Of a DNA stretch of 64,000 bases, positions 830 to 12,517 are shown in pieces. Every line of letters begins with the position of its first letter. Position 1 is the first letter of the stretch. The stretch comes from an uncultured Micavibrio sp. (lineage in GTDB: Bacteria > Pseudomonadota > Alphaproteobacteria > Micavibrionales > Micavibrionaceae). The notes beneath the pieces are model-generated. The model made no database searches and was not told where the DNA came from. It saw only the letters and a program-made list of their open reading frames with translations. The DNA lies in NCBI GenBank assembly GCA_964478225.1, contig CAYZHM010000003.1:64632-128631 (forward strand), in the 5' to 3' direction. The translations under genes were made by a program, and so were the position numbers.

Positions 830-976
830 CCAGAAGCCAGTGTAACAAAAATTATTAAAGAAATGACCACTGAATACAGGTTTTTGATGTTTTTTCAGGG
901 GGATGATAAGGGATTGATTTTACATGAATTACCATATAAATTTGAACGATTCATAGTAAAAACTAAGGAGTTGAAC

Positions 977-1366
977 ATGAGCTTTCCTAAATTTATCGTT
1001 GCCGAATGTGTGAGAACAGAACCCTATGAAGGTAGAGTGGATCTGCTAACGGCGACTTTCAGAAAAGCAGCTGTAACCATAGACTCCAACGATCCTGAAA
1101 CACAGAAAATTTTTGATAAGCCTCTATATGTTGGGAAGATTGATGAGTTTTTGAAACTAGCCCGGCCGAATGGAGATCTTAAAATGATAGCTATACCTAC
1201 TCATGAAGCCATAGCGTATCAACTGGAGCCGGGTAAAATCTTTATCATCAATGAATTTGCACAGTCTTCGAAACCATCAACCGCAGATGAATCAGACGAG
1301 CCCATGCAGAGTTTACTCCCACGCAAACTAAAAACAGGCCTTTCGGAAACACACTACGGCCCTTAA
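977..1366 (+). CDS. Hypothetical protein
   Basis: ORF 863..1366. The internal ATG at 977 is preceded by AAGGAG (966-971), so 977 is the more likely start. No recognisable motif. Confidence 0.45.
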   Translation: MSFPKFIVAECVRTEPYEGRVDLLTATFRKAAVTIDSNDPETQKIFDKPLYVGKIDEFLKLARPNGDLKMIAIPTHEAIAYQLEPGKIFIINEFAQSSKPSTADESDEPMQSLLPRKLKTGLSETHYGP

Positions 1367-1431
1367 AAAATCACGGGATCTTCTCCTGAAGCAGGGATGA
1401 CAATGGCGCTGTAAGGTGCTAATAGACAGTC

Positions 1432-2730
1432 ATGATACCAAGATACACCCGCCCAGAAATGGCCAAAATCTTTGAACCCGAAAACCGGTTCAAGATCTGG
1501 CTCGAGATCGAAACCCATGCTCTCGATAAAATGGCCGACCTTGGAACAGTGCCCAAATCCGCAGCCAAAGCCTTGCGTGAGAAAGGCGATTTCAACGTCG
1601 CCCGCATTGATGAAATTGAGCGCGAAGTCAAACATGACGTTATCGCCTTCCTGACCTCAGTCGCTGAATTTGTCGGCGAAGACTCCCGCTACGTCCACCA
1701 AGGCATGACCAGCTCCGACGTCGTCGACACCGCTTTTGCCGTCCAATTGACGCAAGCCGCCGATATCCTCCTCGAAGATCTCGATAAACTGCTTGCCGCG
1801 CTTAAATCCCGCGCCCAGGAACATGCTAAAACGCTCTGCATCGGCCGCAGCCACGGCATCCATGCCGAACCCACAACCTTCGGCCTCAAACTTGCCGGCC
1901 ATTACGCCGCCTTCAAACGCGCCCGCAAAAGACTGGAAACCGCACGTGAAGAAATCGCCGTCTGCACCATCTCCGGCGCCGTCGGCACCTACGCCACCAT
2001 CGACCCCAAGGTCGAAGAACACGTCGCAAAAAAACTTGGCCTCAAACCCGAAACCGTTGCCACACAAGTCATCCCGCGCGACCGCCACGCCATGTTTTTC
2101 GCCACACTCGGCGTCATAGCCAGCTCGATCGAAAACCTCGCGACCGAAATCCGTCACCTGCAAAGAACAGAAGTCCGCGAAGCCGAAGAGTTCTTTGCCA
2201 AAGGCCAAAAAGGCTCCTCCGCCATGCCGCATAAACGCAATCCGATTTTGACCGAAAACCTGACAGGTCTCGCAAGGCTTGTTCGTTCGATGGTCATCCC
2301 CGCCATGGAAAATGTCACCCTCTGGCATGAACGCGATATTTCGCATTCCTCCGTCGAACGTAACATCGGCCCCGATGCCTGCGTCACGCTCGACTTCGCC
2401 CTCTACCGCCTCACCACCGTCATCGAAAATCTGCTCGTATACCCCGAAACCATGATGGATAATTTGCAAAAAACCGGCGGCCTTGTCTTCTCGCAGCGCC
2501 TCCTCCTCGCCCTCACCCAAAACGGCATCAGCCGCGAGGACGCCTATAAAATCGTACAGAAAAACGCTATGGACGTTTGGGAATCACGTGGAACCAAAAC
2601 CTTACGCACTGCAATTGAGAGTGACCCGCAAGTCACTGAAAAACTTGACAAAAAATCATTAGATACTATATTCGATTACAATCACTACATTAAGAACATC
2701 GATAAAATCATCAAACGCGCATTGCAATAA
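1432..2730 (+). CDS. purB: Adenylosuccinate lyase
   Basis: 432 aa. N-terminus [10 protein letters not shown] and the fumarate-lyase signature [11 protein letters not shown] are typical of PurB. Confidence 0.95.
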
Positions 2731-9273: not shown

Positions 9274-9461
9274 ATTTTAATTGTAACATAAAGATTTTAA
9301 TATCTGCAATTTTAGATAAATTTAAGCCAAATTAACAAAGAGAAATCAGAGACTTGAAAGAAAAAGCTCAGGCACCCCTGCGCAAGAAAATTACGTGGAA
9401 AATGGCGGATTACTTGGGATTAAGACCTTGCAATCATGACCTCGAATGCTACACTAAACCC

Positions 9462-9992
9462 ATGATCGCGAAAAAAGCCTTGGTGCTTCTCTGCTCCGCT
9501 CTCACCTTCACCGCTTCGTCCTACGCTCAAGCCGCCGACAGTAGCAATGATCTGCAAATCAGCCGAATCGGCGACCTTGAACTCAGTTGCGGTCAGCTCT
9601 CGGAAGAAGCCGTGAACATGCGCGACCTTATCTACAGCACGCAAGACATCAAAGACGACTCCAAGCTCAAAAGCCACGGCATCAGCGCCGCCGGCGCGCT
9701 CGGCTCGCTCCTCATCGGCACGGCAACAGGCGGCATAGGCCTCGCCGCAGCTGGCTTCCTGATGGAGCAAGGCGTTTCCAACACCGCAGACAAAGCCGAA
9801 GACATCCAGGATGTCGCACAACAACGCCGCTCGCTCATGATGGGGGTTTTCAACGCCAAGGGCTGCTACGGCCCGATTGAGCACGCAATGCAAGACCCCA
9901 TACCCTTTGATCCTCTGGAACGTCTCGCCGCCATCGAAGCCTCCGCGGGCAACGAACATATCCGCCCCAAGCGCAAGCGCTATAACGACTAA
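9462..9992 (+). CDS. Hypothetical secreted protein with glycine-zipper-like segment
   Basis: ATG at 9462 gives signal peptide MIAKKALVLLCSALTFTASSYAQA. G/A-rich hydrophobic segment GISAAGALGSLLIGTATGGIGLAAAGFL. Confidence 0.5.
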   Translation: MIAKKALVLLCSALTFTASSYAQAADSSNDLQISRIGDLELSCGQLSEEAVNMRDLIYSTQDIKDDSKLKSHGISAAGALGSLLIGTATGGIGLAAAGFLMEQGVSNTADKAEDIQDVAQQRRSLMMGVFNAKGCYGPIEHAMQDPIPFDPLERLAAIEASAGNEHIRPKRKRYND

Positions 9993-10442: not shown

Positions 10443-10710
10443 ACCCTTAATCCTATAACAATCGCCCCCATTCGCGCCAGTTCTAAAACAAAAGCCCGAA
10501 TTACCTTGACCCCAGGGCCGTAATCTGCGCTTAATGCGCCATAGTTTGATATTTACGACATACGACACGGCTTTTTTAAGACGGCCAAGTGAAAACGGGC
10601 CAGGAATTATCCCCTCAAAAGACTCGGTTTGATAGACGTTCATCAGGCACAAGAGCTTGGCGCACGGTTGCGCCCAGCACCAACCGAATTGCTTATAAAG
10701 GAGAAATTTC
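10443..10710 (+). promoter_or_regulatory. Divergent promoter region and probable long cspA 5' leader
   Basis: 268-nt non-coding gap upstream of cspA. AAGGAG lies before the ATG. Long structured leaders are established for cold-shock genes. Boundaries not determined. Confidence 0.4.
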
Positions 10711-10917
10711 ATGGCAACCGGAACAGTAAAATGGTTTAACCCAACAAAAGGCTTCGGCTTTATTCAACCAGAAGACGGTGGCAAAGATGTGTTCGTTCAC
10801 ATCAGCGCAGTCGAAAAAGCAGGCATGCGCAGCCTGAACGAAGGCCAGAAAGTCGAATACGACCTTCAGACCGACAAAGGCAAAGAAGCCGCAACAAACC
10901 TGCGCAACGCTGCTTGA
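10711..10917 (+). CDS. cspA: Cold-shock protein
   Basis: 68 aa. RNP1 KGFGFI and RNP2 VFVHIS motifs; [15 protein letters not shown]. Confidence 0.93.
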
Positions 10918-11093
10918 TGAATGACCGTATGACCCGTCGGCCGATAACGGCCGGCGATTACGGGAAAGGCACAGTCCACCCGCAGTCACCATCAATCCCC
11001 GCAACGCCCCAGGTCATGGAGAAATCCGCAACCGACGGGCAAAAAACTCTCGGCCTCTGGTCGAAGTAACGCGGAGCAAGCAATTACAGCCAA

Positions 11094-11124
11094 AACGGCG
11101 TTCCCAAAAGGAGCGCCGTTTTTT
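11094..11124 (+). terminator. Intrinsic terminator about 175 nt downstream of cspA
   Basis: AACGGCGTTCC-CAAAA-GGAGCGCCGTT followed by TTTT. Confidence 0.65.
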
Positions 11125-11141
11125 GTTGCCCCGTCCGTTTA

Positions 11142-11177
11142 AAAACCGGACCCGAAAACCGGACCCGAAAACCGGAC
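11142..11177. repeat. 13-nt tandem repeat, 2.8 copies
   Basis: AAAACCGGACCCG occurs twice, followed by AAAACCGGAC. It abuts the stop codon (11178-11180) of the 156-aa ORF. Confidence 0.85.
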
Positions 11178-11648
11178 TTAGTCCGAGGATTTTTTCATTT
11201 TCTTGCGCTGCCGCGGCGTCAAAAACTCCGCATCGCCCTGCCCGCCCGTCATCTTCAGCCGCTCAAAAAGCGTCTCCAGCGCGCACAGCAACATCTCCTG
11301 CGCCTTGTTCTCCCCGCCGCGCCGCGAAAACCCGCCTTCCTCAATCTTCTGATTAGCCAGCCGCCGCAAAATCGGCATCGGGATCATCATATAAATCAGG
11401 GTCTCATCCTCCGGCGTCCGCAGCTCATGCACCCAGTAATCCGCCTCCGTCCGGGCAATCCCCGAAGGCTGCTTATACGCCTCATATTCAAAGACAATAT
11501 TGCCCTTCTCATGCCACTGCTTCCGCTCGGTCTTCATCTCAAATTTCTTGTGATTGAGAACAGCCACCAGCTTTTCTTCCGCCGCCCGGGCCGCACTGGC
11601 CTGCAGTTCAAAATCATACTCTGGACCATCATGATAATGCGCTGTCAT
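11178..11648 (-). CDS. Hypothetical 156-aa protein, candidate toxin/effector partner of the upstream antitoxin-like gene
   Basis: AAGGAGG SD before the ATG, 54 nt downstream of the Phd-like ORF. No Doc, RelE/ParE or PIN signature recognised. Basic C-terminal tail. Confidence 0.6.
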   Translation of the reverse strand: MTAHYHDGPEYDFELQASAARAAEEKLVAVLNHKKFEMKTERKQWHEKGNIVFEYEAYKQPSGIARTEADYWVHELRTPEDETLIYMMIPMPILRRLANQKIEEGGFSRRGGENKAQEMLLCALETLFERLKMTGGQGDAEFLTPRQRKKMKKSSD

Positions 11649-11702
11649 TCACACCTCCTTATTACCGCAAACAACAAGTGTACCAAGCCTTGGCCACACA
11701 AT

Positions 11703-11903
11703 TCAAATTTCGGACTTTTTCGCTTGCCGCGCCGCCCAGCGCTTCTGGCTTTCATTGGTGATGTAAACGCCGATCGTGGTGCGATAGCGCTGCACCATCA
11801 CCGCCCGGTACTCCCCGCGCTCCAGCATCCGCGTATATTTGGAAATATTGGTTTTAAAATCATGCAGCGAGGCGTAAATCACCCCCTCCGTATAAAGAGC
11901 CAT
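11703..11903 (-). CDS. Phd/YefM-like type II antitoxin (short)
   Basis: 66 aa. ASLHDFKTNISKYTRMLERGEYRAVMVQRYRTTIGVYIT matches the Phd/YefM N-terminal pattern (reporter residue, F-K/R-x-N-hydrophobic-S, then a beta-strand core). GGAGGG SD upstream. Confidence 0.55.
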   Translation of the reverse strand: MALYTEGVIYASLHDFKTNISKYTRMLERGEYRAVMVQRYRTTIGVYITNESQKRWAARQAKKSEI

Positions 11904-11929
11904 CCACCCTCCTTCAGGGTTTTTGACTC

Positions 11930-11958
11930 ATTATAGGAATTTATTCTTATTTTGTCAA
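11930..11958 (-). promoter_or_regulatory. Consensus sigma70-type promoter for the antitoxin-like operon
   Basis: Minus strand: TTGACA (11958-11953), 17-nt spacer, TATAAT (11935-11930). It is followed by the SD and the ATG at 11903. Confidence 0.6.
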
Positions 11959-11964
11959 GAATAA
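11941..11964. promoter_or_regulatory. Perfect 8-bp inverted repeat overlapping the -35 box (candidate operator)
   Basis: TTATTCTT (11941-11948), N8, AAGAATAA (11957-11964). The -35 hexamer lies across the loop and right arm. Confidence 0.55.
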
Positions 11965-11965
11965 C

Positions 11966-12517
11966 TTAGCGAAAATTGCACTCTTTGTGACACTCATCTC
12001 CTTTGCATTCACGAATAGGAGCCAAAAAAATTACATTTATCAATTTATCTTTTTCTAAACCACGACTTATCTTTCCCGCCTGAATAAAAGATTCCCCAAA
12101 CGCATTTTTAAGAAAGAATATAAAATCTCCCCTGTATAGTTCTTGACTAAAGCAACCTTCCTCCGGAGACCCTATACGTGTAGAAGGCTGGCCTGGTAAA
12201 ATTTGTCTACAATATGTGTTAGGGCCTACATTACAAAGTGGGAAATCTAATTCTATCAGTGTAAAAGGGTGAGTCCCATAATTAGAAACATAAAAGTCTT
12301 TGGTATCTTCATCATAAGTGATGCCGGCTATAGGAGTTAGATCAATCCTACTAAGTTGCTCACTAAGCCTTGTCTGATTATTCATGATCTTGCACTGAGA
12401 TACTCCTATTGCAACTGCTGCCACAAAACCTAACAGAACAATTACGACCTCTATCCTTCTTAAATTTTTTTCATCAAAAAATTTTTTAAAACGATTGCAT
12501 AATTTTTTATAAATCAT
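11966..12517 (-). CDS. Hypothetical membrane-anchored, Cys-containing protein (AT-rich gene)
   Basis: 183 aa, one N-terminal TM helix ([18 protein letters not shown]), C-terminal [10 protein letters not shown]. Its start overlaps the uvrB stop as ATGA (12514-12517). Confidence 0.5.

Follow-up and report, generated by a model that had tools for sequence, protein, structure and literature searches.

Two kinds of described system bear on the locus considered here: type II toxin-antitoxin operons, in which the antitoxin gene stands first, and the small, solitary, modification-dependent PD-(D/E)xK enzymes NhoI, Eco15I and DpnI. In the canonical layout of the latter an E in helix alpha1 is followed by a D at the start of beta2 and by (D/E/Q)xK in beta3 (PMC11347163). 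The locus lies in a stretch of 64,000 nucleotides (nt), hereafter the window, from an uncultured Micavibrio sp. (assembly GCA_964478225.1, contig CAYZHM010000003.1, positions 64,632 to 128,631), where an open reading frame (ORF) of 66 amino acids (aa), which we call the small gene, is followed on the minus strand by an ORF of 156 aa. The first-pass annotation of this DNA had read the two as a type II toxin-antitoxin or defence system whose second member may be a new toxin. The reading that we favour, and hold to be fairly probable, is that a phage gene has been captured downstream of a resident and normally solitary gene for a small Phd/YefM-like regulator, with which it is co-transcribed; that is, what is seen here is most likely a lineage-specific juxtaposition rather than a dedicated two-gene system.

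The operon and the distribution of its two genes

The evidence that carries this reading is, in the first place, the distribution of the two genes. All six-frame ORFs of at least 35 aa in the fetched loci were searched with two hidden Markov models (HMMs): A6, built from the small-protein family, and A7, built from bona fide Phd/YefM antitoxins and then validated (in the PDB, A7 recovered YefM with an expectation value, E, of 1.4e-37, RelJ with 3e-36 and Phd with 5e-22). In the 94 loci that contain a relative of the 156-aa protein no ORF matches A6 or A7 at E<=1, and a tblastn/blastn check agreed; conversely, the four other loci of the small gene (L003, L015, L016 and L017) contain no relative of the 156-aa protein. 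Because the homologues are never adjacent (0/94 one way and 0/4 the other), the 66-aa and 156-aa genes are not, as far as these sequence comparisons reach, a conserved toxin-antitoxin or defence pair. Adjacency of homologues in other genomes was one of the points on which the first-pass annotation had itself, beforehand, made its proposal depend.

In this genome, in contrast, the layout on which that proposal was founded is real, and a new reading of the minus strand of 10900-12200 together with the ORF listing returned every feature that had been described, at the following coordinates:

11930-11958, minus strand: sigma-70 consensus promoter, with TTGACA at 11958-11953, a spacer of 17 nt and TATAAT at 11935-11930 (12/12 match)
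11907-11914, minus strand: Shine-Dalgarno sequence AAGGAGGG of the 66-aa ORF, 3-4 bases 5' of the ATG at 11903
11703-11903, minus strand: 66-aa ORF, a divergent, weakly Phd/YefM-like, lineage-specific and normally solitary gene with four homologues
11649-11702, minus strand: 54-nt spacer between the ORFs, without terminator and with AAGGAGG at 11654-11660, the Shine-Dalgarno sequence of the 156-aa ORF
11178-11648, minus strand: 156-aa ORF, by HMM match a member of phrog_13596, with a C-terminal extension (about residues 133-156)
11092-11122, no strand: bidirectional intrinsic terminator, common to the convergent cspA, with 13-nt arms of 92% complementarity that fold and a T-run after the hairpin

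The textbook promoter, both Shine-Dalgarno sites, both ORFs and the gap between them were thus as first described, and so was the position of the locus between cspA (Pfam CSD, E 1.6e-27) and uvrB, both confirmed with Pfam. A 12/12 promoter occurs a single time in the window, and 100 shuffles that preserve dinucleotides did not produce any. The RNA of the spacer between the ORFs forms no significant hairpin (fold z = +0.54). The two ORFs make up an operon in this genome, and probably a single transcript, because the spacer has no terminator, a strong terminator follows the second ORF and there is a single strong promoter.

It is therefore with an operon of classic form, with the small gene directly upstream as the antitoxin gene is in type II operons, and under a strong promoter, that the idea of a genuine toxin-antitoxin or defence module must be weighed, in which the small protein would neutralise the 156-aa protein, a new toxin, and autoregulate the promoter. 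The weak likeness of the small protein to Phd/YefM, the unusual conservation of the promoter spacer, which would fit an operator, and the catalytic-looking invariant residues of the 156-aa protein all agree with it. Apart from the lack of co-occurrence, however, the closest homologues of the 156-aa protein (50-58% identity) stand alone beside housekeeping genes, which is hard to square with a toxin that requires an antitoxin; the region that follows the predicted third strand of the Phd-like domain counts only about 17 residues, short for a toxin-binding tail; the palindrome proposed at the promoter is not conserved; and no toxin family of PADLOC, Pfam or NCBIfam is matched. We therefore consider such a module decidedly unlikely, and the toxin-antitoxin discovery, which is not upheld, need not absorb wet-lab effort on a false lead.

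The 156-aa protein and the phage family phrog_13596

The 156-aa protein, which had been described as unclassifiable, belongs to a very large phage family: it matches the HMM of phrog_13596 (E 1.9e-15, residues 12-131 on positions 8-125 of 131), a PHROG without assigned function, and so do all 75 of its 75 aligned relatives. A literature search on the identifier phrog_13596 found nothing. There is no Pfam, NCBIfam or PADLOC match at E<=1, the known toxin families (Doc/Fic, RelE/ParE/YoeB, PIN) and the defence proteins included; the 75 relatives match no Pfam family, apart from one fused GNAT domain, and the longer members, with N- or C-terminal extensions, show no Pfam domains in these. The size of the family emerges from the depth of the search: four relatives (51-57% identity) were obtained by a word-indexed search, and 1,373 cluster representatives (clusters at 50% identity) at E<=1e-3, 325 of them at E<=1e-10, by an exhaustive profile search, with a typical length of 125-145 aa. 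A pattern scan of IMG/VR gave at least 593 viral contigs with a member, and tblastn gave 32 annotated phage genomes, mostly of Pelagibacter podoviruses plus Puniceispirillum phage HMO-2011; in plasmids there were no matches.

Within the family E37, K39, E54 and G112 are invariant, and E24, E41, W45, G49, N50, S62, G63, T67 and W72 nearly so. As the window protein retains every one of these residues of a large family, the 156-aa ORF is a real gene. Its closest relatives (50-58% identity) also share with it the C-terminal extension GxGDxEFLTxxQR. In two other relatives (P0010 and P0033) the C-terminal extension is of another kind, rich in Cys and His (CxC...CxxH-like) and reminiscent of a zinc ribbon, which would fit nucleic-acid binding.

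An AlphaFold2 model made from the alignment of 75 sequences, with a predicted local distance difference test (pLDDT) of 93.6 and a predicted template-modelling score (pTM) of 0.84, was used, since an alignment of five sequences gave a pLDDT of 45 and was unusable. Its elements are a helix (13-33), four strands (36-41, 50-57, 71-77 and 83-90), a helix (91-103), two further strands (108-111 and 117-123) and two helices (124-133 and 145-155). Foldseek against BFVD returned uncharacterised phage proteins only, down to E 2.7e-9, and against the PDB no match at E<=0.001; ranks 1-7 of the PDB search were nonetheless taken by chains of NhoI, of the N-terminal domain of Eco15I and of DpnI, with weak values (E 0.046-0.16, template-modelling score, TM, 0.27-0.32), and rank 8 by XiaF, an unrelated protein. 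The order of the motif residues is E24 in the helix 13-33, E37-x-K39 and E41 in the first strand (36-41), and N50 and E54 in the second (50-57), so that the canonical order is not followed, the invariant E-x-K being on the first strand and further invariant N/E on the second. The KTER motif was also considered as a KxDG of the ligase or capping-enzyme type, an idea rejected because of the small size of the protein and for want of structural support.

The protein would most likely be a Mg2+-dependent nuclease or phosphodiesterase acting on DNA, a guess prompted by the invariant acidic and Lys residues and by the constant association of the family with genes for polymerase, ribonucleotide reductase and exonuclease. 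The suggestion of the first-pass annotation that the partner is nuclease-like keeps the company of the weak Foldseek matches to PD-(D/E)xK enzymes, and loses that of the canonical residue order and of the profile comparison with the BisI family. For this comparison the sequences of NhoI and Eco15I, taken from the supplement of PMC11347163, were made into a BisI-family profile (A8).

If the protein is a nuclease, it could also be one that works by itself in defence: the chromosomal, extended subfamily of phrog_13596 would then be a stand-alone restriction-like enzyme, analogous to the BisI-family modification-dependent endonucleases, and the upstream regulator would merely drive or control its expression here. 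This we think unlikely. The top structural matches are precisely such enzymes, the basic C-terminal helix is specific to the subfamily, and the chromosomal copies occur singly, dispersed over contexts that have nothing in common, as mobile defence genes would; however, the structural matches are weak and the BisI profile comparison is not significant, there is no PADLOC match, no defence-island context was seen, and most members of the family are encoded by phages, at a fixed position in replication modules.

In phages the family has its place in DNA-replication modules. The recurrent upstream neighbours in the 94 loci are a T7-type DNA polymerase (27), ribonucleotide reductase (13), a 79-aa ORF (10) and a MazG-like gene (4); on the downstream side a 74-aa ORF recurs (17), as do nuclease- or exonuclease-like proteins of three groups (12, 10 and 7). 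Nearly all records of HTVC019P-type pelagiphages have the homologue at the same, fixed position. The closest homologues, on the other hand, are chromosomal singletons in unrelated places, with upstream gaps of 37-230 nt. Individual contexts are as follows:

HTVC019P: between DNA polymerase and exonuclease
HMO-2011: between ribonucleotide reductase and a MazG-like gene
CRP-143: after DNA polymerase
C72C1: before a replication initiator
HTVC115P: between lysozyme genes, upstream of SSB and primase
L008 (metagenome-assembled genome of a Caulobacteraceae): prophage block with ERF, an MT-A70 methyltransferase and a Toprim/AAA_25 primase-helicase
L001: beside a radical-SAM/TRAM gene
L002: 37 nt after a Sel1-repeat gene
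L014: 43 nt after trpF
L012 (6001-6888) and L013 (3330-4217): the homologue (P0008) carries a GNAT acetyltransferase domain fused to its C-terminus and follows a giant beta-helix protein
L007 (6025-6369): N-terminally truncated copy that starts at about residue 44, lacks E24, E37, K39 and E41, and lies beside a partial resolvase

The ORF upstream of the homologue in L008 had been labelled RuvC-like by eye; Pfam did not confirm the label, which is not used. P0008 is the closest representative of the 156-aa protein, and in L012 the next gene belongs to the histone-deacetylase family. The truncated copy in L007, an uncultured alphaproteobacterium, adjoins fragmented serine-recombinase ORFs and appears to be a decaying remnant of a mobile element.

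The small gene, its promoter and its palindrome

The initial search with the 66-aa protein gave one homologue, P0007 in L003. The DNA similarity between L003 and the window begins exactly at the -35 box, takes in the promoter (30/31) and reaches about 41 codons into the gene. In L003 440-640, compared with window 11786-11959, the similarity stops abruptly at about codon 41, the C-termini being unrelated; to judge from the alignment, a breakpoint of recombination seems to lie within the gene, or else a copy has had its frame disrupted there. A scan of metagenomes for the promoter sequence led to L015, where an identical promoter (32/32 with its flanks) is followed by a hairpin-rich leader of about 120 nt and by an 89-aa ORF that aligns with the whole of the 66-aa protein, and a profile search added P0160 (92 aa, in L017) and P0161 (59 aa, in L016). 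These four are all the relatives obtained: a peptide-pattern search of JGI metagenomes and IMG/VR, and tblastn of plasmids and phages, gave no more. Substitutions between the window gene and the four homologues fall on the third codon position more than on the first, and on the first more than on the second (11/5/23 for the window and L016); from this coding-type pattern among the five small genes it follows that the 66-aa ORF is a real gene.

What comes after the small gene differs in each of the five loci; in the four others it is the following:

L003: a convergent gene
L015: a flagellin-like gene, about 320 nt away
L016: a 90-aa Cys-rich protein with a signal peptide
L017: a convergent homologue of window ORF 9354-9992

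As these loci are without a relative of the 156-aa gene and their neighbours are all different, the small gene is normally solitary. Two further observations concern L015 and L017. Hairpins resembling repetitive extragenic palindromes or miniature inverted-repeat transposable elements (GTCATCCTGCG...CGCAGGATCC, repeated inverted) are placed between promoter and start codon (L015 720-830, minus strand; L017 1-107), extending the leader of the small gene from about 26 nt to about 124 nt. Immediately upstream of the promoter of the small gene in L015 there is a zeta-toxin-family ATPase (1035-1637, minus strand; PF06414, 1.4e-11), overlapped by a 58-aa ORF (869-1045, minus strand), and these two may be a separate toxin-antitoxin-like pair.

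The Phd/YefM pattern that had been attributed to the small protein stands in part. The window protein itself has no Pfam match at E<=10 and none in NCBIfam or PADLOC, and no relative by sequence in the PDB, whether single sequences or profiles are used. In its family, PF02604 (PhdYeFM_antitox) is found in three of the five members, with a best E of 0.014, which does not reach the Pfam threshold; a scan of all Pfam at E<=10 lists no other family. When the small-protein family is compared with A7 by hhalign, residues 12-57 are laid on YefM 5-49, in the expected register, with a score of 15.0; 300 column shuffles give 9.4 +/- 2.0, and three of the 300 reach the real score (empirical p of about 0.01). 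The N-terminal domain is thus probably a remote fold of the Phd/YefM type, a weakly supported assignment drawn from profile comparisons. Compared with the versions of 89-92 aa, the window protein is without the C-terminal 25 residues or so, the similarity ending after about residue 57.

More constant than the protein is what lies 5' of it. A consensus-like sigma-70 promoter precedes the small gene in all four loci with upstream DNA available, and promoter and spacer have been kept though the coding DNA has diverged. It was over this promoter that the first-pass annotation had placed a palindromic operator, and three elements of symmetric or repeated sequence have to be considered here:

11938-11967, no strand: inverted repeat spanning the -35 box, with a perfect core TTATTCTT-N8-AAGAATAA at 11941-11964
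11173-11185, no strand: palindrome CGGACT(T/A)AGTCCG, a companion motif of the small-gene family, here overlapping the 156-aa stop codon
11142-11177, no strand: three tandem 13-nt units, perfect copies (minus strand GTCCGGTTTTCGG), directly 3' of the 156-aa stop codon

The perfect inverted repeat around the -35 box is present as described, and can even be extended to arms of 11 nt (91% complementarity); perfect 8-nt inverted repeats are not rare, with 19 in the window as against 11.7 +/- 4.2 in Markov-1 random sequence. Its right arm is within the conserved spacer of the promoter (AAGAATAAATTCC), whereas its left arm, which starts just after the stop codon of a 183-aa ORF, is specific to this genome. 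As the left arm is absent in L003 and L015, the specific operator that had been proposed is not supported. The 17-nt spacer, 100% identical between the window and L015, leaves room for a different regulator site or operator, which is possible as far as sequence conservation can tell.

The second palindrome behaves differently. Its core ACTTAGTCC is found once in the window (0.15 expected), at the stop codon of the 156-aa gene, and a 13-nt form, (C/T)GGACT(T/A)AGTCC(G/A) (CGGACTAAGTCCG), often then followed by GTTTTC(G/C)GG, accompanies the small gene in four of the five loci. There are two copies just 3' of the gene in L015 (gene-oriented 1233 and 1331), two in L017 (381 and 488), one of which overlaps the stop codon of the small gene, and one in L016, in the leader (897). 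Among 100 fetched loci the full palindrome is in L015 and L017 only, and the local alignments of the palindrome beat at least 299 of 300 shuffles. By these comparisons the palindrome goes with the small gene rather than with the 156-aa family; it could be a site of protein binding or of recombination. The three tandem units seem to have arisen when the tail of the palindrome motif was triplicated locally.

L017 shares synteny with the window at ORF 9354-9992; in the window some 1.4 kb of additional DNA separates the two genes in common. This synteny, together with the linkage of the palindrome and the missing C-terminal residues of the small protein, would suggest, from motifs that are short, that the 156-aa gene entered a module of small gene plus palindrome that was already in place. 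A further idea, which we find very unlikely, is that the 156-aa gene is a selfish element, like a homing endonuclease, inserted at or near the palindrome GGACT(T/A)AGTCC in the 3' part of that module. The 156-aa gene does stand between the small gene and a palindrome which otherwise follows that gene directly, and the small protein is shortened at its C-terminus; moreover, the chromosomal positions vary, with a decayed, truncated copy beside the broken resolvase of L007, and the intergenic positions in phage replication modules are like those of free-standing homing endonucleases. However, the fixed position in nearly all HTVC019P-type records suggests a core gene and not a sporadic one, the palindrome is never next to other members of the 156-aa family, and the homology at the junction is only 15-22 nt.

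Capture of a phage gene behind a resident small gene remains, then, the reading that we prefer, and its steps would be these: (i) the resident small gene would be driven by the consensus sigma-70 promoter, and its product, with a Phd/YefM-like N-terminal domain, would most likely bind DNA as a dimeric regulator, its targets possibly being the conserved spacer of its own promoter and/or the palindrome GGACT(T/A)AGTCC; (ii) a gene of the phrog_13596 family, which in phages belongs to a module of DNA replication and nucleotide metabolism, beside DNA polymerase, ribonucleotide reductase and exonucleases, would have come to sit between the small gene and its usual palindrome; (iii) and finally, the captured gene, with its own Shine-Dalgarno sequence, would be expressed by read-through from the promoter of the small gene.

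As to the rest of the islet, a 183-aa orphan ORF (11966-12517, minus strand) has a guanine-cytosine content of 0.35-0.40, as against 0.58-0.66 in the adjoining uvrB, whose stop codon its start overlaps by 4 nt, and it begins with an N-terminal hydrophobic helix. It has no homologues outside its own cluster and no family matches; being also AT-rich, it looks like foreign DNA in the same islet. The window contains no tRNA genes and no Rfam matches at the gathering score, and hence no clues to an integration site; on the plus strand at 10566-10962, the 5' untranslated region and gene of cspA match the cspA thermoregulator of Rfam below threshold (28.4 bits as against a gathering score of 78, E 1.5e-4).

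Weight of the reading and comparison with known systems

What the analysis shows is the structure of the operon, the families to which the two proteins belong and the absence of co-occurrence; enzymatic activity, binding of DNA by the small protein and the history of the insertion are inferred. Several points weigh against the reading of a captured phage gene, or against parts of it. Phd/YefM antitoxins pair with unrelated toxins, so that a functional pairing specific to this locus is compatible with the comparative data. The small-gene family has five members, mostly on short contigs, and an always solitary state is drawn from few loci; the insertion scenario, in turn, is drawn from a motif of 15-22 nt and one syntenic contig. 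As for the activity, the assignment as a nuclease is weak (best Foldseek E 0.046, TM of about 0.3), the ExK lies on the first strand after the helix, out of the canonical residue order, and hhalign of the 156-aa family (A2) with the BisI family (A8) is not significant (probability 0.2%, P 0.33).

Whatever its activity may be, phrog_13596 is a very large and confidently foldable phage family without a Pfam or NCBIfam model or a function, abundant in marine podoviruses and with a fixed position in pelagiphage replication modules, and it deserves biochemical characterisation. The locus itself illustrates on a small scale an orphan Phd/YefM-like gene whose consensus promoter is strikingly conserved, which has a palindrome associated with it and whose downstream cargo varies by genome. 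As a wider and rather unlikely speculation, phrog_13596 could be an unrecognised enzyme family, probably of nucleases with a rearranged PD-(D/E)xK-like site, that serves as a near-core replication gene of marine podoviruses (pelagiphages and the HMO-2011 type); its chromosomal, C-terminally extended copies would have been domesticated, and one of them, captured here behind an orphan Phd/YefM-like gene, would make a nascent toxin-antitoxin-like or regulator-effector pair.

Set beside the known systems, the locus resembles each in part. With Phd/YefM (PF02604) the small protein shares the beta-alpha-beta-beta pattern of the N-terminal sequence, and its gene the first place in an operon under a strong promoter; unlike them, the matches of its family are sub-threshold and the window protein itself has none, there is no conserved toxin partner, the gene being solitary in four other loci, and the C-terminal tail is very short. 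The confident model of the 156-aa protein comes nearest in structure to NhoI (8q5n/8rpx), Eco15I (8q5m/8q5o) and DpnI (4esj), which have a similar size (about 150 aa), and with the BisI-/DpnI-type PD-(D/E)xK enzymes in general the protein has in common an invariant acidic-x-Lys on a beta-strand and an acidic residue in the first helix; it departs from them in the order of its motif (E24, E37-x-K39, N50/E54 as against E...D...(D/E/Q)xK), and a dependence on modification is not indicated. The closest likeness is with the phage proteins of phrog_13596 (HTVC019P gp20, YP_007517827; HMO-2011 gp19, YP_008320281), which are similar over the full length (33-40% identity) and have all the invariant residues in common with the window protein, whereas the latter is chromosomal and carries a C-terminal extension of about 24 residues (GxGDxEFLTxxQRK plus a basic tail), common only to a small set of cellular copies.

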